Shown: in pieces, positions 4,266 through 63,695 of the stretch | Numbering within the stretch: the first letter of the stretch is position 1 | How the letters are laid out: each line of letters starts with the position of its first letter | NCBI GenBank assembly: GCA_951406725.2 | Contig: OX597824.1 | Coordinates: forward strand, 76,756,001-76,820,000 | From: Octopus vulgaris | Taxonomy: Eukaryota | Length of the DNA stretch: 64,000 nucleotides | Direction: 5' to 3' | The notes under the pieces: generated by a model | Database searches by the model: none | Told to the model about the DNA's origin: nothing | Seen by the model: only the letters and a program-made list of their open reading frames with translations | Program-made: the position numbers and the translations under genes

Positions 4266-4765
4266 ACTTGTATATACATGCACATGCATATATGAGTGTG
4301 TATATATGCATACTTGCATTTATATATACATGCACATGTGCATTCATACACACATATATATTACACACACACACACACACAGACACACACACACATACAC
4401 ACACACATATATATATATATAATGGATATTTGTATGCTTATGTGTCAGAAATGCAATACCCACACATGTACATATACATGCGCATACAATACTTACATAC
4501 GTACATGCATACATGTATATATATATATACGTATACATATATGCATATATATATATATATATATATATACGCATACATATATATATATATATATACATAT
4601 ACGCATATATAGACATATACATATATATAAATATATATAACATGTCCATATATAAATACATTTATGGATGTATACATACATATATATATACAAACATACT
4701 TACTGCATATATATATATAAATATGTATATGTATATATATATATACATATACACATATATATGCT

Positions 4766-4917: not shown

Positions 4918-5159
4918 TATATATATGTATATTTACATATATATATATACATACATATATGTATGTATATGTATGTATGTATGTATATGTATATATTTTA
5001 ATATTGATATGATTATTATCATTATCAATCTGCAACAGTTACAGAGTCCCGCAAGGGCTGACAGTAACGCACATCAGCACTTGACAGAATGATAAGTACC
5101 ATTGCACGAAACTTTAGCTTTTAAGTGACTCTGTATCTCTCGGCGAGTAATAAGAATGA

Positions 5160-5320
<161 letters not shown>

Positions 5321-5347
5321 TACACACAGAGACGTACGTATGTACAC

Positions 5348-5397
<50 letters not shown>

Positions 5398-5398
5398 T

Positions 5399-5438
<40 letters not shown>

Positions 5439-5713
5439 ATGCCTGGAAGATGTCATAATCCAAGATAAATCCCATTCAAGTAATACTGTATTACTTTTTA
5501 ATCTTTTTCTTACGAATTAATGATATGTAATCCCGTATATGTCTTCCACATGTATATATATATTATAAATTTATATCATCTTCATAACGTTATTATTAGC
5601 ATTAATATCTATATTCGTAACGTATTTCCAATTGTGTAGTAAAACATGTGTTTCACAGAATTTAAAATATATACCAAATTTTTCAGTTTTTTGCCTTAAC
5701 CACCTCCCCGTGT

Positions 5714-5750
<37 letters not shown>

Positions 5751-6253
5751 TGTTTGTGTGTGTGAGTGTGCTCTGTGTATTAAGATTGAAGGACCAAGAA
5801 AATTGCTTCATAAACACATGGCCTCACGTTGCTATAATCTTAGGCCGAAGCAAGCTTATTATGCCGAGCTGAATACACAACCTGATTGTTCCTGCGATTT
5901 AAACATCCACTATTTTCACATTCTACCCAAGAATTATGCAAAATGGCGACAAATCTGTTGAATATTTGGTCATTTATCAGCAAACCTTTAAGTGTTTAGT
6001 TTCGAAGAGACACAAAAAGTACGAACATTTTTCTATGAGTTAAAATAAAAGAAAAGATAACGTGGCTCATGAAAAAAACATATGTACCAATACCAGAGTG
6101 GATTAAAGGCATTATGCAAAACAAGGAAGAATGTTGAAAGAATTTTAGACCTTCAAGATGTTAGCTTTCAGACGATTTTTCTCTAATCGATCAATTGAAG
6201 AATCTGAAGCATGAACGCTCCCAGAACACATATCAGAAGAGCTGTAAGATTAT

Positions 6254-11801: not shown

Positions 11802-12284
11802 GGCGTAGGAGTGGCTGTGTGGTAAGTAGCTTGTTTACCAACCACATGGTTCTGGATTCAGTCCCACTGCGTGGCACCGTGAGCAAGTGTCTTCTACTTT
11901 AGCCTCGGGTCGACCAAAGCCTTGTGAGTAAATTTGGTCGACGAAAACTGAAAGAAGCCCGTCGTATATATATATATATATATATAATATATATATATAA
12001 TATATAATGTATATATATATATATATATAATAAATATATATATATATATATTGTGGGTGTGTGTGTATATGTTTGTAGCTCTGTGTTTGTTCCCCCTAAC
12101 ATCGCTCGACAACCGATGCTGGTGTGTTTACGTAGCCGTAACTTAGCGGTTCGGCAAAAGAGACCGATAGGATAAGTACTAGGCTTACAAAGAATAAGTC
12201 CTGGGGTCGATTTGCTCGACTAAAGGCGGTGCTCCAGCATGGCCATAGTCAAATGACTGAAACAAGTAAAAGAGTAAAAGAGTA
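11802..12284 (+). mobile_element. SINE group B, full length
   Basis: Head GGCGTAGGAGTGGCTGTGTGGTAAG...GATTCAGTCCC, internal (TA)n, tail GGCGGTGCTCCAGCATGGCC...ACAAGTAAAAGAG. Confidence 0.9.
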
Positions 12285-12293
12285 CATATATAC

Positions 12294-12558
12294 TGGAAAG
12301 TTACTGGAAAAACCATAAATAAGGATTTGCAAACCTCCCTTGATTGCCGTACGCCGAAGACAGGTAAATACCTAGAAACTGCAGTCCGTGCGTATCACTT
12401 AGGTTGACGAGAGAGGGATGACCTCCCTTTGCAAATACTATAAGAGCACAGAAAGTGTGCCTAAAGCCAGCTGGAGACGATGATCTCCTGGGGCTACAAG
12501 CTACAGTAACACCCACACTTAGTGGTTAGCCATATTGAGAGGGCTAGCATACCTTACA
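12294..12558 (-). mobile_element. Diverged single arm of the foldback element at 56783-57230
   Basis: Shares CCCTTTGCAAATACT, GCACAGAAAG, GCCAGCTGGAG and GCTACAA.CTACAGTA with the 57050-57230 arm; ends in ACA. Confidence 0.7.
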
Positions 12559-12560
12559 TA

Positions 12561-12599
<39 letters not shown>

Positions 12600-12988
12600 G
12601 TGTGTGCGTGTGTATTCGTGTGTACAAACGTAAAGGTATGAATATTTTGTGTGTACAAGTATTTGCAAAGGTGTGTGTGTGTTTGTATACATATTGTTTG
12701 TCATAACTGTTTACTTCATATCTTCATTTTAATCCGTATTCACATATTAAGACACCTGTCTGCTGCGTTAACTCTACCAAAGGTGTTAATAACAACCGGA
12801 TTTCTCCCGCCATATCAATCGGAAGATTCATAAATTATTCAGTTACCCTGAATGTATGTGTTGCAAATTGATTCTCAGTTGCCGTCAGTTTCTGCATCCC
12901 TGTTTTCTACAATATACCTTGGGAATAAATATACATGATTCTGGATAGAATGGCAAATAACAAAGTGCAAATACATATGCACGTAAAC

Positions 12989-13039
<51 letters not shown>

Positions 13040-13045
<6 letters not shown>

Positions 13046-13229
13046 CCTATTGATCAAATTTTTTTCCTTTCCCTTTTTTTCCTCCCCCCCTTTTTTATCC
13101 CCCCTTTTTTGTCCTCTTTCTTTCCATTTACGATCCCTTTTGATCGAAAACCAAACCCCCTTCTTTTACCCCCAAAAGAAAAGCTCTACCTTGTAATTTT
13201 GTCCTGTCTGTGTGGCTAATAAAGAAACA
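13040..13229 (+). mobile_element. 5'-truncated 3' UTR of the Tx1-like LINE
   Basis: Matches 14155-14360 (ATCCCTATTGATCAA...AAAGCTCTACCTTGTAATTT...GTGGCTAATAAAGAAACA); (TATC)n on both sides. Confidence 0.9.
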
Positions 13230-13270
<41 letters not shown>

Positions 13271-13271
<1 letters not shown>

Positions 13272-14360
13272 GAGTGTCGCGTTGCTCTCAAGCAACTCTG
13301 CCGTCCTGGGTCGACCTTAAGTGACTTCAACACAACCAAAGCATTCTATAGGGGTTTAGTGGAGGGGAGGTACGACGACGAGCTCGGGGCGAACCTGGAC
13401 GTCGACGAGGAGTACCTGACCCGCCTGTTCAGGACGACCTTCGGGCCAGGGCCCATGGACAACTTCCAGAGATCCCTGGCCTGGCAGTGCTACCGAGAAG
13501 CGCTACCCGTTCGGGATAAGCTCTACAGACACGGCTCGAGAAACACGGGGCCGACCTGCCCGAGATGCGGTCAGAGCGACGAAACCGTTCTGCACGCACT
13601 CGTTCAGTGTCCAACAATTTCCGACCTGTGGGCTTATGTCGAACAACTGCTGTCACGTGTGGGACGAGTCGGTTTATCAGCTGAGTCTATCGTCAATATT
13701 GTCACGCCTCCTTCCTTCAAACGGGAAGGAAGAGCTATTTTCATCATCCTTGTGGCTATGGCGAAAGAATGTATCTGGTGGACGCGTCTGAAAGGATTGG
13801 AGACAAACACTTTCCTCTCTGGTCAATCTCTCATCAACTTCTTCAAGTACCACTTGAAAAGGAAAGTGAGAGTAGAGAGGCAAGTTTTGTCTAGCGAATG
13901 TTTTAAAAAAAGATGGGTGAATGTAGCAAGAATGGCACGTATGAATGACGAAGCCACCTTGAGCATAGTCCTATGAACCCAGAAATCGAAAACAGAGAGT
14001 TGCTTATTTGCAAAAAAAAAAAAAAAAAAAAAGAAATATAAAATGTGACTTCATTGACCGAGGTTACCGTGGTCTTTTCCGTAGGCTTTTCTTTCCACGG
14101 GTAAACCTCACCTGTCCTCCCCTTTACACTTCATATTGACATTTCTGTGATAACGATCCCTATTGATCAATTTTTTTTCGTCTCCCCCTTTTTTTTAACC
14201 CCCTTTTTTTGTCCTCTTTCTCTCCTTTTACGATCCCTTTGATCGAAACTCCCCCTTCCTTTTTTTTTTTTTTTTTTTTTTTTTTAAACCTTCAAAAGAA
14301 AAGCTCTACCTTGTAATTTGTTCTATCTGTGTGCAGCCCTGTGTGGCTAATAAAGAAACA
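13271..14360 (+). mobile_element. 5'-truncated Tx1/L1-clade non-LTR retrotransposon (ORF2 C-terminus plus 3' UTR)
   Basis: Uninterrupted reading frame to 13976 with a zf-RVT-type zinc knuckle; 3' UTR ends AATAAAGAAACA, followed directly by (TATC)n. Confidence 0.88.
13272..13976 (+). pseudogene. ORF2 C-terminal fragment, zf-RVT CCHC domain (no true start codon)
   Basis: RSLAWQCYREALPVRDKLYRHG...CPRCGQSDETVLHALVQCPTISDLW...AKECIWWTR. The first ~20 aa of the listed ORF are the upstream 3' UTR copy and TATC repeat. Confidence 0.85.
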
Positions 14361-14396
<36 letters not shown>

Positions 14397-14418
14397 CATC
14401 TATCTGTCTCTCTCTTCT

Positions 14419-14452
<34 letters not shown>

Positions 14453-14542
14453 CATCTATCTATTTATCAATCCATCTATCCATCTATCTAACTATTTATT
14501 CATCTATTTACACACACACCACACATGTATATGTAAATATGC

Positions 14543-14602
<60 letters not shown>

Positions 14603-14929
14603 GAAGAGAGAGAGAGAAAGAAAGAGAGAGATATTCAGGGACGGATGAAAAGCAGCGCTAGTGTTGTAATCATTTTCGATCGCACACAATGTATGTGCTT
14701 CGTTCTTTCACCGGTTCCATGCGTTATAGCGCTTAAAGGAGAACTCTTTGATAACCCTTGGTGTTAAAGCACCTGAAAGTCATAGATAAGTAAGACACCT
14801 CACCCTGACCCATTACGTAATTTTATTTTTCCTATATACATCCCCGTGGCATACCAGCAAAAACCTATTACAACATATATAAATATCTTTTCCAAAATAT
14901 TTTTAAATGACCATCCCGCAATATAACAA

Positions 14930-14933
14930 AGTA

Positions 14934-15028
<95 letters not shown>

Positions 15029-15069
15029 ATCTCTCTATCTCTCTATTTATATATCTATATATATATATC

Positions 15070-15111
<42 letters not shown>

Positions 15112-15130
15112 GTGTGTGTGTGTGTGTGTG
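14930..15130. repeat. (TATC)n + (TG)n microsatellite
   Basis: Direct reading. Confidence 0.95.
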
Positions 15131-15259
15131 TTTACACCCGCACAGAAACATACTCAGAAAGACAAACACATGTATACATTCATGTGTAGCTGATATGGAG
15201 GTAGTGATACAGAAAAGCAGAGTTGGGTATGACGCTTATATGCATACATAGATATGTAT

Positions 15260-15328
<69 letters not shown>

Positions 15329-15818
15329 AACTAATTTTGATAAAACAAAAGGTATACAGAGAACCATGAAAGAAATATATAATTTCTTTACTTAACAGCT
15401 GTTTCAAGAAACTGGGAGTCTCGTAATAATCATAATATTCATAATTTACTGATAGCATATGCAAAAAGTCTCAGATATGACATCTGTGAACCGAACAGTC
15501 ACACAGTAATGTTACAATTAGTTTGGTTTCCACATCAAGATGAGGTAAAAACCAAAGTGTATATACATTTTGCATAAGACACATGCCTGCTCGAAGAATT
15601 TAAGGTTTTTCCGCAATATTTCTAGCCCTAAGTGGCTTAATTTTTAATATCTAGCACTGTCTTTCTCCATTTCTAATTTTAGAGTATACATAAACTAACC
15701 TTGCAAAATACAACTGATCCTTACACACAGACACACAGAACAACAGGAATCAAATAGCACACATCGGACTGCAGAACAAACATCAGCGATCTGACTGTCG
15801 GCTGTACTCTTGACAAGA

Positions 15819-16049
15819 AGGCGGCAAGCTGGCAGAAACGTTAGCACGCTGGGCAAAATGCGTAGACGTATTTCGTCTGCCGTTACGTTCTGAGTTCAAA
15901 TTCCGCCGAGGTCAACTTTGCCTTTCATCCTTTCGGGGTCGATAAATTAAGTACCAGTTACGCACTGGAGTCGATGTAATCGACTTAATACCTATGTCTG
16001 TCCTTGTTTGTCCCCTCTATGTTTAGCCCTTGTGGGTAATAAAGAAATA
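15819..16049 (+). mobile_element. SINE group C (Nin/Deu-domain-like core), monomer
   Basis: B-box GAGTTCAAATTCC, core CTTTGCCTTTCATCCTTTCGGGGTCGATAAATTAAGTACC. Perfect 16-bp TSD TGTACTCTTGACAAGA at 15803-15818 and 16050-16065. Confidence 0.92.
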
Positions 16050-16509
16050 TGTACTCTTGACAAGAGATGCCAGTTTTTTACACCTACCAGGCTCGAGTTG
16101 CTGAATTATTTTTCGTTCCTTTGAGAATACTGTCGAACGGAAACTTTTCGTAGATTGGAATTTAAATCCTAATCTCTATAGAAATTAATTGCCTCAGGAA
16201 CAAAATGAATTTGAATAACTTTTAATTTTTACGACTATAGATAACAACTCGGGCTGTAACTTCTAAGCGAGAGTCAAGTGCATGTGAACTATGTCGAGAG
16301 CACGTCTGCTACGAATGATATCTTTTGAGACAGGGCACCTCTAAGATGACCGCCAGTTGCTGAACTGCAACCAAGCTCAATGAAAGAAGCCTGAGTTATT
16401 GATTGCATTTAGATATTTGAAGTCAATGTTGGCAGAAATTAAATTAGCTTCGAAATACAAGTTCACTTATGTGTGTGTACGTATGTATGTGTAATGTGTG
16501 CATACATCA

Positions 16510-16894
16510 TGGAAGCACTCCGTCAGTTACGACGACGAGGATTCCGGTTGATCCGAATCAACGGAACAGCCTGCTCGTGAAATTAACGTGTAAGTGGCTG
16601 AGCACTCCACAGACACGTGTACCCTAAACGTAGTTCTCGGGGATATTCAGCGTGACACAGAGAGTGACAAGGCCGGCCCTTTGAAATACAGGTACAACAG
16701 AAACAGGAAGTAAGAGTGAGAGAAAGTTGTGGTGAAAGAGTACAGCAGGGATCACCACCATCCCCTGCTGGAGCCTCGTGGAGCTTTAGGTGTTTTCGCT
16801 CAATAAACACTCACAACGCCCGGTCTGGGAATCGAAACCGCGATCCTATGACTGCGAGTCCACTGCCCTAACCACTGAGCCATTGCGCCACCAC
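16510..16894 (-). mobile_element. SINE group A, full length
   Basis: Near-identical to the 6254 copy; TSD TGCATACATCA at 16499-16509 and 16895-16905. Confidence 0.92.
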
Positions 16895-16905
16895 TGCATA
16901 CATCA

Positions 16906-17171
16906 ATGACTGATGCATCTAGACACATCTTCAGAGACGTGCTTGGTATCATCGGGTGTTTCAGATCTTTCAACATCATACACCCTCCTCCAGGTGGCCC
17001 AGCTGGGGCTGATCAGACCCCAGATTGTGTCCAGATGGCCAACGAGCTACCCCATGGCTCTCCTCTTTTGATCCACTGCCATCTTGAGGCCGTCTCTGTC
17101 GCATCGGTGGTACTGCGGGTGGCATTCCTCCTCAAACCCTCGATACCCAAACTGGCGAATGTATTCTCAGT
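16906..17171 (-). mobile_element. 3' end of a HERO-like (RLE-type) non-LTR retrotransposon
   Basis: 17171-17013 reads TENTFASLGIEGLRRNATRSTTDATETASRWQWIKRGEPWGS..stop, resembling the LGI.G...AE.AS.WLW.KR...W C-terminus; short 3' UTR follows. Confidence 0.65.
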
Positions 17172-24897: not shown

Positions 24898-25749
24898 GAA
24901 TCTTTACCTCTTGACCGGCAGATGTAGAAAATAATTTTTTGTAACTAAACACTTTCAAACTTCGTATACTGGTAGAATGTGTCATATAAAACATCTTTTA
25001 CTCTTAGCATTTTTGAGCAAAGTTTATATTTACGAAGTTATTTCGTGTTAAAGTTGTCCTATTTCGGTAATTTCAACCAATCAATGACGTGTATTGAGCG
25101 GAATAAAATTACTGCCGTTGTTTGTTGACAACTTCCGGCGGTATATATTTCGTTTGTCACTGTTATTTATGACATCGTTCGTGCGTTTGTACTGGTTTTA
25201 GCTTTGGGGTTTTAGGGTTAGGGTTAGGATTTTAGGGTGAGGGTTAGAGTTTTAGGATCAGGGTTAGGGCTAGGGTTTTAGGGTTAGGGTTTTAGGATTT
25301 GGGTTTCAGTGTTAGGTATAGGGTTTTAGAGTTAGGCTTAGGGTTAGGGTTAAGGTTTTAGGGTTAGAGTTACGGAAAATTGAAGCACGAATGGTTATTG
25401 TGGTACCATGAAGTAAACATGTTTCAGATACACTCGTTGATTCACACAAACGTAACTGAGATGAAATATGTCATAAATAACGGTGACAAACGAAATATAC
25501 ACCGCCGGAAGTTCTTGTTGACAAACAACAGCACTAATTTTATTCAGCTGAATACACGTTATTCATTGGTTGAAATTACCGAAATACGACAAATTTAACA
25601 CGAAATAACTTCGTAAATATAAACTTTTTCTCAAAAACGCTAAGAGTAAAAGTTGTTTTATATGAAACATTCTACCAGTATACGAAGTTTGAAAGTATTT
25701 AGTAGCAAAAAATTATTTTCTAAATCTGCCGGTCAAAAAGGTAAGATCC
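24898..25749. mobile_element. Foldback/MITE with ~275-bp inverted arms and a central degenerate TTAGGG tract
   Basis: Left arm 24898-~25173 is the reverse complement of ~25469-25749 (TTGACCGGCAGA...TTATTTATGACA); TTAGGG/TTTTAGGG units at ~25200-25370. Confidence 0.9.
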
Positions 25750-31857: not shown

Positions 31858-32487
31858 AAGGCGGCGAGCTGGCAGAAACGTTAGTACGCCGGGCGAAATG
31901 CTTAGCGGTATTTCATCTCCCGTTACGTTCTGAGTTCAAATTCCGCAGAGGTCGACTTTGCTTTTTATCCTTTCGGAATAGATAAATTAAATACCAGTTG
32001 CATGCTGGGGGTCGATGTAATCGACTTAATCTGTTTCTCTGTCCTTCTTTGTCCTCTCTGTATTTAGCCCCTTGTGGGTAGTAAAGAAATAGGTATTTCG
32101 TCTGCCGCTACGTTATCAGTTCAAATTCCAGCTGAGGTCGACTTTGCCTTTCATCCTTTCAGAATCGATGAATAAAGCACCAATTACGCACTGGGGTCGC
32201 TGTCATCGACTTAATCCCTTTGTCTGTTCTTGCTTTTCCCCTCTATGTTTAGCCCTTTGTGGGCAATAAAGAAGAAATAAGAAACTTTAGCACGCCGGGC
32301 GAAATGCTTAGCGGTATTTCGACTGTCTTAACATTCTGAGGTCAAATTTCGCCGAGGTCGACTTTGCCTTTCATCCTTTCAGAGTCGATAAATTAAGTAT
32401 CAGCTGCGTACTGGAGTCGATCTAATCGACTGACCCTCCCCTCCCCCAAAATTTCAAGCCTTGTGCATAGAGTAGAAAAGAATATTA
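31858..32487 (+). mobile_element. SINE group C trimer
   Basis: Three head-to-tail core units; the last ends in the alternative tail CCTTGTGCATAGAGTAGAAAAG. Confidence 0.88.
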
Positions 32488-33245: not shown

Positions 33246-33685
33246 GGATCTTTTCCGTTTGAACGGCAGTTTTTTCTAGCGGTGTCACATGAAATTGTCA
33301 CCCATAATTATGACCTTAGTATCGATCTATTGCATTTCAATCTGTTTTAGGGTTAGGGTTAGTTAGGGCTAGGGTTAGGGTTAGGGGTGGGGGGAAGGGT
33401 ATCTTTTTTCTTCAGAAATGTAAATAAACCCAATCTGTTTCTTAAACGAGGGACATATTCATACAGCACAGAATGTTTTCACCCCAAATGGACGTCATTG
33501 ATTGGTTGAAATTGCAGAAATTGAAGAAAAAAAACCCAACAAATCTCATACAAACTATAGAATTTTCTCAATAAAGCCAAGAGAAAAAGATGTTTTATAA
33601 ACACATTCTACCAGTATAGGAAGTTTAAAATTTTTTACTTACCTAGAAATTATGTTAAAAACTGCCGTTCAAACCGAAAAGTTCC
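33246..33685. mobile_element. MITE with ~30-bp TIRs and internal TTAGGG repeats
   Basis: GGATCTTTTCCGTTTGAACGGCAGTTTTT and AAAAACTGCCGTTCAAACCGAAAAGTTCC; TTAGGG units at 33347-33385; shares CATTCTACCAGTATA and ATTGGTTGAAATT with the 24898 element. Confidence 0.85.
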
Positions 33686-36328: not shown

Positions 36329-36916
36329 ATAATTCTTTCTACTATAGGCACAAGGCCTGAAATTATGGGGAAGGAGCAAGTCAATTATATCGACCCCAGT
36401 ACTCAACTGGTACTTTATTTATATACCCCAAAAGGATGAAAGGCAATGTCGACCTCGGCGGAATTTTGAACTCAGAACGTAGCGGCAGACGAAACACCTA
36501 TTTCTTTACTACCCACATGGGGCTAAACACAGAGAGGACAAACAAGGACAGACAAACGGATTAAGTCGATTGCATCGACCCCAGTGCGTAACTGGTACTT
36601 AATTTATCGACCCCGAAAGGATGAAAGGCAAAGTCGACCTCGGTGGAATTTGAACTCAGAACATAACGGCAGACGAAATACCTATTTCTTTACTACCCAC
36701 AAGGGGCTAAACATAGAGGGGACAAACAAGGACAGACAAACGGATTAAGTCGATTATATCGACCCCAGTGCGTAACTGGTACTTAACTTAATCGACCCCA
36801 AAAGGATGAAAGGCAAAGTCGACCTCGGCGGAATTTGAACTCAGAACATAGCGGCAGACGAAATACCGCTAAGCATTTCGCCCGGTGTGCTAACGATTCT
36901 GCCAGCTCGCCACCTT
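36329..36916 (-). mobile_element. SINE group C trimer
   Basis: Head at 36916; units joined at AAAGAAATAGGT; last unit has the alternative tail. Confidence 0.9.
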
Positions 36917-38037: not shown

Positions 38038-38642
38038 AAGGCGGCGAGCTGGCAGAAACGTTAGCACGCCGGGCGAAATGCTTAGCGGTATTTCGTCTGC
38101 CGCTACGTTCTGAGTTCAAATTCCGACGCGGTCCACTTTGCCTTTCATCGTTCTGGGTCGATTAAATAAATACCAATTACGCACTGTGTCGATATAATCG
38201 ATTTAATCCGTTTGTCTGTCCTTGTTTGTCCTCTCTGTGTTTAGCCCCTCGTGGGTAGTAAAGAAATAGGTATTTCGTTTGCCGCTACGTTCTGAGTTCA
38301 AATTCCGCTGAGGTCAACATTGCCTTTCATCCTTTCGGGTCCGATTAAATAAGTACCAGTTGAGTACTGGGGTCGATATAATCGACTTAATCCGTTTGTC
38401 TATCCTTGTTTCTCCCCCTCTGTGTGTAGCCACTTGTGGGCAGTAAAGAAATAGAAATAGATATTTCGTCTGCCGTTACGTTCTGAGTTCAAATTCCTCT
38501 GAGGTCGACTTTGCCTTTGATTCTTTGCGGTTCGATTAAATAAGTACCAGTTACGCACTGGGGGCGATCTAATCGACTTTATCCCTTTGTCTGTCATTGT
38601 TCCCTCTATGTTTAGCCTCCTGTGAGCAATAAAGAAAGAAAT
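38038..38642 (+). mobile_element. SINE group C trimer
   Basis: Units start TATTTCGT at ~38089, 38271 and 38462. Confidence 0.9.
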
Positions 38643-55104: not shown

Positions 55105-55514
55105 GTGCAAGCATAAGTACTTGCAAAATTTTGAATTTTTTCCTTTTCATAAAATCTTTGAGAAGAAAGCTGAAAAAATGGAAGATCCAAGAAATTGATT
55201 CTTTGAAAATTGTTGCATCCTAGCGATTCAGAACGTGGTGCACGTTTACCTTCATAGGAATGCATACATAAAGAAACAAGCAAATATATGATATAAAAAT
55301 ATTTTACTCCTCAATTTTTTTGTTTGGAATTTCCTTGGAAATTTTTTTTTTGTCACTTCTGTAACAATCGACATATTTACTGCAAATGAATTATTTATCT
55401 AAGTAGTAAGTTTTTGAAATAATCTCTTACAGTTGTTGGGTGTATACATACGTATGCATTAATGCTAGTTTTCCTCAGAAGGCAGAAAGCACGAGAAATA
55501 AATGCTGGTGAGAT

Positions 55515-55866
<352 letters not shown>

Positions 55867-55867
<1 letters not shown>

Positions 55868-56015
55868 GTTTCTTTATTCGCCACACAGGGCTGCACACAG
55901 ATGGGACAAGTTACAAGGTAGAGCTTTTCTTTTGGGGGATGAAAGAAACAAAAAACAAAAGAAACAAAAAAAAAGGGGTGGCGTAGGTTTTCGATCAAGA
56001 GGGATCGTAAAAGGG
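55867..56015 (-). mobile_element. Third 3' UTR copy of the Tx1-like LINE
   Basis: Reverse complement of AAAGAAAAGCTCTACCTTGTAA...GCAGCCCTGTGTGGC..AATAAAGAAAC; abuts (GATA)n. Confidence 0.88.
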
Positions 56016-56501
56016 AAGAAAAGAACTCTTTGTCTTTCATCGTGGAGCACACAAACACATGGCTTATTTCTGTTTAATTAATTATGACTCTTGATGCCGT
56101 AACATAATAGGCCGCCGATGACACTCTAACCAGTTGTAATCTAACCAATCTTCAGTATTTGTTCCAGGGATTTGTTGATGTACACGGTAAAGCTTGTATT
56201 TTACTATGTACATCTGGAATGAATATCGTTCTATATTCAAATACTATCCACCAGTAGAATTCGCGAGATTATCATATGTTTACCAGTAGCACAGTCAGTA
56301 TTAATAAGTCGCCCAGATATGTTATTGATTGAGCAAATGTATCGTCTAGGCGATACATATAATGAATGTTGTATATGGTACAACTGCAACTCGTGGATGT
56401 TTATCCAGCGAGCTGGCAGGAGCCTTTGAATGCCAGGGAAAATGTGTGTGTGTGTGTGTGTGTGTCTGTATATGTGTGTGTGTGTGTGTGTATGTGTGCG
56501 A

Positions 56502-62325: not shown

Positions 62326-62813
62326 AAAAAATAAAAGCTCCTTCCTGCAGGAGCAATAGCAGAATGGAAATAACAAGAAGTCATCTTTAACTTCATTGTG
62401 TTCCGAAAGATATTCATTAACTTTAATGAAATACTAACGAGACAAAAAAAATTTGGAAATCACATGACAAAAAAAATAATGAATGACTTCGTTTAAGTGA
62501 TGCGTTAACTTAATGAAATTGCTTTCCTATTTTTGCTTAATGTAAGTAATGTATTATAAATCATTACCACAAATGATTGATTAGCTACCATGTGTCAACA
62601 CGCTAATTGTGCAGATATCAAATCGCCCCAGTAAAAGACAAGGAAAAAAAAAAAACAGAAAAAGCACAAATGTGAACGGAAACTAAGTCATTCTGTTCAC
62701 GTTTAAAGGAGGAAATGCATACTTTTACTTTGATGAGCAGAAATGTAAAAAAAATAAAGAAACGATTCCGAGAATGGAGCGTCGAGAACTTTGTAACGCC
62801 AAAATTAATATAA

Positions 62814-63220
62814 GATGAGCTGGCAGAAACGTTAGCGAAACGGTCGAAATGCTTAGCGATATTTCGTCTGCCGCTAGGTTCTGAGTTCGAATTCCGCCGA
62901 GGTCGACTTTACCTTTATCCTTTCGGGGTCGATTAAATAAGTACCAGTTACGCACTGGGGTCGATGTAATCGACTTAATCCGTTTGTCTGTCCTTGTTTG
63001 TCCCCTCTATGTTTAGCCCCTTGTGGATAATAAAGAAATAGATATTTCGTGTGCCGCTACGTTCTGAGTTCGAATTCCGCCGAGGTCGACTTTACCTTTC
63101 ATCCTTTCGGGGTCGATTAAATAAGTACCAGTTACGCACTGGGGTCGATGTAATCGACTTAATCCGTTTGTCTGTCCTTGTTTGTCCCCTCTGTGTTTAG
63201 CCCCTTGTGGGCAATAAAAA
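62814..63220 (+). mobile_element. SINE group C dimer
   Basis: Two ~183-bp units; TSD AAAATTAATATAA at 62801-62813 and 63221-63233. Confidence 0.9.
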
Positions 63221-63695
63221 AAAATTAATATAATAGTACAGTACATGAGGAAAATAATGTTAATCTAAATATATAGGTCGAATTCTCACATAGCTGAATG
63301 GATGCGAAAAGAATGAGTTTGAATACTCATCCTATATCTTACAGTTTCGCTCTACCCCAAACGATGAGACGACCACAAAACGCAAACATATTAATATATG
63401 GAGGGAAAATAACTCTGATATAAATCAAATGTCGCTCCGAAGACAACAGTTAATATAAAATTATATTCTCCAAATCAAAAATAGACAAAAATAAATAAAA
63501 AAGAAAAAATTGATGTTACGTTGGGTAACACTGGCCTAGATAGGTTGCTTGAAATAAAGTCGGAATAATCATGGTAGGAACGCCTTTGTCTCTTGATATG
63601 CTTAGTCAGAGCAGATGTAGAGGTAAACAGCAGTAAGGATAAAGGCCACATTGAAATAATGTAGCCTGTATTGTGCTGTATTATTTCATTGAAAA

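Follow-up and report, generated by a model that had tools for sequence, protein, structure and literature searches.

The window analyzed here, a 64,000-nt stretch of the Octopus vulgaris genome (assembly GCA_951406725.2, contig OX597824.1, positions 76,756,001 to 76,820,000), contains three copies of a LINE, together with arrays of TATC units and a set of tRNA-like SINEs (Table 1). Each LINE copy closes with AATAAAGAAAC and one further base—A, A, and T in copies 1, 2, and 3, respectively—and then runs into (TATC)n, confirming the common end that the earlier note had described for all three. TATC at the 5′ truncation points of the two tandem copies was likewise recovered, as two discrete arrays, with the first bases of copy 1 showing a short microhomology with the array that precedes it; the 5′ junction of copy 3 was again found to be free of TATC. 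When the 19-nt end motif was searched for with up to 3 mismatches, five matches were obtained in the window against 0.03 expected, of which three are the LINE copies and two are SINE ends. An Rfam search of window positions 12000–17000 gave no match reaching the threshold of any family. The window also holds degenerate TTAGGG-like interstitial arrays at 25194–25372 and 33347–33386.

Table 1. LINE copies, TATC arrays, and SINEs in the window (window coordinates)
Feature	Position	Strand	Remarks
TATC array, (TATC)14	12989..13045	+	5′ flank of copy 1
LINE copy 1	13043..13229	+	5′-truncated piece of 3′ UTR, older subfamily; from alignment to L040
TATC array, (TATC)10.5	13230..13271	+	separates copies 1 and 2
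LINE copy 2	13272..14360	+	young, 5′-truncated; positions 4983–6075 of full-length element
ORF2 C-terminal part	13272..13976	+	in copy 2; 234 codons including zf-RVT, plus stop codon
AATAAA	14349..14354	+	in copy 2, 6 nt upstream of element end; no poly(A) after
TATC array, degenerate (TATC)37	14361..14507	+	3′ flank of copy 2
tRNA-like SINE	15819..16049	+	~230 bp; 16-bp target-site duplication, no TATC
SINE array	31907–32273		
SINE array	36378–36867		
SINE array	38087–38601		
TATC array, (TATC)89	55511..55866	-	3′ flank of copy 3; reads AGAT on + strand
LINE copy 3	55868..56021	-	3′ end of older subfamily, terminating in AAACT; 5′ junction without TATC
SINE copy or copies	about 62810–63230	+	

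The three copies differ in age, copy 2 being young and copies 1 and 3 belonging to older subfamilies: aligned to an intact full-length copy elsewhere in the genome (L040), copy 2 mismatches at 3 of 1087 bases, whereas copies 1 and 3 do so at 14 of 170 and 16 of 143, respectively. In copy 2, the frame is open from 13272 to the stop codon at 13976, and the encoded ORF2 fragment matches zf-RVT (E 2.4e-8). The earlier proposal of an uninterrupted ORF2 fragment within a young insertion thus holds for copy 2, but youth does not extend to its two older relatives in the window.

The full-length element is ~6.07 kb long and encodes in L040 an ORF1 protein of 674 aa and an ORF2 protein of 1145 aa. The Pfam domains Exo_endo_phos (APE; 1.7e-15), RVT_1 (2.1e-30), and zf-RVT (2e-7) were detected in ORF2, which retains the residues aligning to the catalytic set of the L1 endonuclease. 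ORF1 contains one CX2CX4HX4C (CCHC) motif and gave no Pfam match. Counts in the genome are 6,104 for the 24-nt 3′ end and 3,424 for a 44-nt end belonging to the young subfamily; a DNA search with copy 2 returned 1035 candidates, and all 40 of the 40 that were scored are 98–100% identical to it. Eight near-full-length copies differ from one another by 0.2–0.6% (~0.4%), with ORF2 whole in six of them and both ORFs whole in two, and misassembled homopolymers may account for some of the breaks in ORF1. The family is very young and recently expanded. In a set of subfamilies (L083, L093, L138, L101, and L110), ORF2 is 90–99% identical to that of the young family and ORF1 41–57% identical over most of its length, with the switch in identity falling within ORF1 in L083; this pattern suggests that the 5′ part has been exchanged more than once while the TATC target was retained. 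Other irregularities are 5′ inversions resembling L1 twin-priming products in two of the 98 copies described below (L115 and L156), and an identical short insertion inside the three copies (L154, L155, and L158) of a duplicated segment (at least 2.6 kb, 99.5% identical).

Flanks were tabulated for 98 copies in the first 25 Mb of contig C1, namely the first 100 matches on that contig minus two segmental duplicates. About a quarter of the 5′ boundaries needed manual placement on account of diverged subfamilies, deletions, or inversions, and a 5′ flank was called TATC when at least 10 nt of the repeat lay at the junction. The 3′ junction is fixed at AAAC-A|TATCT, with A as the last base in 95 of the 98 copies and TATCT following in 82. 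Genome-wide, ATATCT comes next at 5,206 of the 6,104 3′ ends (85%) and (TA)n at 55, and a run of six A follows none of them—that is, there is no poly(A) continuation. For comparison, TATATATAT is 8.5 times as frequent as TATCTATCT in the window (1671 vs 196). One copy of the 98, L109, enters an array in the opposite orientation, with the GATA phase at its 3′ flank.

The 5′ side is likewise rich in the repeat. TATC was found at the 5′ junction of 68 of the 98 copies, including 31/34 young and 37/64 older ones, against a background of 0.9% for 4000 positions of the window and 7/2680 for positions in distal flanks; the remaining 30 copies are mostly older. TATC is present at the 3′ flank of 62 copies, and the two flanks are correlated, with the repeat on both sides in 53 copies, on the 5′ side alone in 15, on the 3′ side alone in 9, and on neither in 21 (p = 1e-5). 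Among 20 long loci drawn from 40 BLAST matches, 19 have a TATC-type array within ~25 nt of the 5′ end, and these ends are spread 1.3–6.1 kb from the 3′ end of the element. Of 65 5′ junctions examined, 35 were clean, and 26 of these fit ...TATCT|, as compared with 41% expected (p = 7e-5). The suggestion that the family targets GATA/TATC repeats is supported genome-wide.

We assign a probability of roughly 0.88 to the reading that a recently expanded L1-group LINE, likely of the Tx1 clade, inserts in one orientation into (TATC)n arrays that likely existed beforehand, likely by means of an endonuclease that nicks the GATA strand at 5′-AGATA^G and primes there. The TATC repeat behaves as a target rather than a tail, and four lines of evidence favor arrays that pre-date the insertions: the co-occurrence of 5′ and 3′ TATC given above, target-site duplications, the flanks at (TA)n sites, and matching variant units. 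Regarding duplications, 14 were flagged as spanning non-repeat letters among 57 copies with imperfect 3′ flanks, and 9 of these were judged credible; they measure 5–16 bp, mostly 12–14 bp, and begin at a TATCT-like site, with several located at sites having neither an array nor a TATC tail. A further 22 loci yielded one more duplication, of 9 bp. Many copies inside arrays fit no duplication longer than 5–9 bp, and in such copies the duplication length varies or is hidden.

The (TA)n sites were assessed with 30 of the 55 (TA)n-flanked copies, of which 25 have the 5′ end in view and were scored by hand; three of the 30 also belong to the sample of 98. Their 5′ side is TA in 13, TATC in 3, TC in 1, and other or unresolved in 8, and TA at the 5′ junction is far more frequent than in the general sample (13/25 vs 2/98, p = 4e-9). 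Variant units (e.g., TCCA, TCGA, and TACA) also match across the element: at 69 loci, the match was 0.20 as compared with 0 ± 0.033 after shuffling (p = 1e-4), and the total of variant 12-mers common to both flanks was 344, whereas no value above 184 arose in 2000 shuffles. The number of loci sharing any variant 12-mer, 25 of the 69, was not significantly different from that in shuffles (20.4 ± 3.2). No empty allele was seen in an empty-site test on assembled contigs of 4 of 24 public runs: the flank of locus L070 proved to be a dispersed repeat, and at locus L010 the part adjacent to the junction had no coverage, with the contig extents compatible with either allele.

A rival possibility is that the target grows upon insertion: a short TATCT site or array would suffice, and integration would add pure (TATC)n at the 5′ junction, either by slippage of the reverse transcriptase on the target or by a jump to a UAUC-tailed RNA, so that the family lengthens or seeds its own targets. 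Perfect TATC runs in young copies are indeed about twice as long on the 5′ side as on the 3′ side (median 55.5 vs 29 nt; of 56 loci, the 5′ run is the longer in 37 and the 3′ run in 17; p = 2e-4). Older copies, 40 in number, showed no such skew (p = 0.75), and uniform insertion into arrays would not predict the asymmetry of the young ones. Several copies have long pure TATC on the 5′ side yet merely TATCT or (TA)n on the 3′ side. However, where the duplication is clear, it abuts the element with no additional sequence in between, and at (TA)n sites the 5′ junction is predominantly TA. Furthermore, the skew in run length would follow either from repeat addition at integration or from a protein that binds TATC upstream while the nick falls near the 3′ part of the array, and the (TA)n sites favor upstream binding; a TATC array lies immediately upstream of five of those with TA at the 5′ junction. 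Growth of the target is regarded as improbable.

Much less credible is the view that (TATC)n is simply a templated 3′ tail in the style of RTE and CR1 elements, with 5′ TATC being a neighbor's tail or a chance occurrence. The 85% of 3′ ends continuing in ATATCT and the 12 of 98 copies that are in tandem would fit this view, and RTE elements tie 3′ microsatellites to insertion sites (PMC6007223). The earlier note had itself cautioned that the 5′ TATC of copy 2 could be the tail of copy 1, and that TATC confined to 3′ ends would speak for a tail. Across the family, this caution falls away: 5′ TATC is carried by 56/86 copies that are not in tandem, among them 24/27 young ones; off-array and (TA)n sites show no TATC tail, whereas a microsatellite-tailed LINE would copy its tail to every insertion regardless of site; and the repeat type and variant units of one flank recur in the other. 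Least probable of all is passive accumulation, in which random or AT-biased insertion is followed by survival in repeat-rich, low-constraint DNA—an explanation proposed for Drosophila Waldo-A/B near CA repeats (PMC3812793) and in keeping with the clustering of the family, but opposed by the base-exact phase of the junctions, the single orientation (GATA phase in 1 of 98 3′ flanks), the avoidance of the commoner (TA)n, and a TATC association that is strongest in the youngest copies.

Under insertion into pre-existing arrays, the endonuclease would nick the GATA strand at 5′-AGATA^G, and, by analogy with known L1-group biology, target-primed reverse transcription would start there. The TATC strand would be nicked as well, usually following TATCT, which would produce staggers of 4n+1. 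Priming by mammalian L1 uses poly(A)/poly(T) pairing. In the octopus element, AATAAA lies 6 nt before the end, so cleavage of the transcript would fall in the downstream array, leaving on the RNA a UAUC stretch that could base-pair with the primer; we give about even odds that read-through UAUC at the RNA 3′ end anneals to the GATA primer in this way, in place of poly(A)/poly(T) pairing.

Since each insertion leaves target on both sides, copies would be able to pile up head to tail. Three hit-rich regions of contig C1 (near 60.4, 71.6, and 84.4 Mb; L190–L198) consist of 20–40 kb in which copies follow one another on the same strand with TATC arrays of 30–1150 nt between them, and intermixed in them is an older relative with 82–94% identity in ORF2, a different 3′ UTR, and the same TATC target. 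Some clustered units are truncated at one and the same position (four at 4732, plus a pair at 4644 and another at 483); they probably arose by later tandem duplication, and copy number therefore overstates the number of insertion events.

The SINE of the window resembles the LINE at its 3′ end: 33 of its last 42 nt are identical, and under strict alignment none of 2000 shuffles reached the score, whereas with a lenient alignment the score did not exceed those of shuffles. It is abundant, with 73 ends in 1.1 Mb of genome DNA and many copies in head-to-tail arrays, and TATC followed none of 29 SINE ends having an intact AATAAA. This suggests a SINE–LINE pair involving a sister LINE with a different target. 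A broader scenario can be drawn, in which a distinct octopod L1-group lineage would prime on GATA through its own read-through UAUC RNA, lengthen (TATC)n at each 5′ junction, grow its own targets, and help enrich octopus genomes in GATA arrays, while a sister lineage with another target mobilizes the tail-sharing SINE; we consider it speculative, with the odds well against it.

The element shows the hallmarks of the L1 group, that is, ORF1 and an ORF2 with N-terminal APE and RT, 5′ truncation, a fixed 3′ end, and target-site duplication. Among solved structures, its RT is closer to L1 ORF2p (E 3e-53) than to R2 (E 4e-20), the best PDB match being human L1 (184 bits). ORF2 scored 454 bits with a Patella protein, 401 with Paramuricea, 359 with Caretta, 324 with Danio BAC82613, and 278 with Ciona BAC82626; the closest named protein is from Argonauta (69% identity), and the RT is ~38–42% identical to its nearest named counterparts in non-cephalopod animals. 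BAC82613 may be a Mutsu element, but a literature look-up did not tie the accession to any element name, and neither the homologue searches nor the protein cluster look-ups returned a protein labeled Tx1, Kibi, or Koshi. RT trees were built with FastTree and with IQ-TREE (fast mode, SH-aLRT) from sequences that include no verified Tx1 or mammalian L1. In the tree of 89 RTs, the family forms a lineage of its own (SH-aLRT 100), shared with proteins from Argonauta and unnamed ones, within a clade of animal L1-group sequences (100) whose backbone is poorly resolved. Tx1-clade elements are characterized by a C-terminal zinc-binding domain in ORF2 and a CCHC knuckle in ORF1, and both features are present here, as zf-RVT and as the single CCHC motif. 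Judging from domain layout and similarity scores, the family probably belongs to the Tx1 clade. In both Patella caerulea and Coilia grayii, the genes of related ORF2 proteins are numbered consecutively along a single contig, a hint that target-specific elements may be arrayed in tandem in a limpet and a fish.

The repeat annotation of Octopus vulgaris lists 13 recently active L1-Tx1 families with 421 insertions (PMC13282606), and the TATC-targeting family may be among them; a term search of its main text found neither "target" nor "GATA". The earlier note knew of no such family in cephalopods, and our literature search, covering sources other than Repbase, Dfam, and the supplements of PMC4494074, also found no description of a LINE directed to TATC/GATA, nor of any such element in a cephalopod, with nothing on a TATC target in the accessible parts of PMC10294476, PMC4758252, PMC4889948, PMC2684134, and PMC6007223. 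Microsatellite-targeting LINEs are already known as a kind, Tx1 families having been described on (TC)n (Kibi) and (TTC)n (Koshi) in teleosts and on (TTCC)n/(TTTC)n in crocodilians (passages of PMC4494074), and the microsatellite targets given in a review, as excerpted, are ACAY, AC, TC, TTC, and TAA (PMC3812793); the TATC unit was not found in print. Passages of PMC4494074 count as microsatellite-targeting a family with the repeat in more than 20% of flanks, and the octopus family lies above that value on both sides (68/98 at 5′ and 62/98 at 3′ flanks, and 85% of 3′ ends genome-wide). The family brings a further target unit, and probably a further host class, into a short list whose targeting mechanism is called "not well understood" in the review cited above (PMC3812793). 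Thousands of young copies, off-target sites of natural origin, and intact full-length members make it a tractable system for separating endonuclease recognition from RNA–target pairing. In practical terms, octopus GATA markers can carry insertion polymorphisms, and TATC should not be trimmed as a LINE tail in annotation.

Like mammalian LINE-1, the octopus LINE has two ORFs, APE and RT, 5′ truncation, 5′ inversions (2/98 here), and short duplications. Unlike mammalian LINE-1, it has no poly(A), no ORF1 Pfam match, a zf-RVT C-terminus, and a strict repeat target, and its score with mammalian LINE-1 (184 bits) is far lower than those with invertebrate and fish L1-group proteins (278–454 bits). 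Waldo, Mino, and Dong belong to the R1 and R4 clades, which differ from that of the octopus LINE. They are likewise site-specific in simple repeats, with ACAY, AC, and TAA, respectively, as targets (PMC3812793, in part). Kibi, Koshi, and the crocodilian Tx1 families differ from the octopus family in host and in target unit, which in the octopus is TATC. They resemble it in being APE-type L1-group LINEs lodged in a microsatellite, with the repeat on both flanks and the pyrimidine-rich strand as the sense strand of the element (PMC4494074; PMC3812793).
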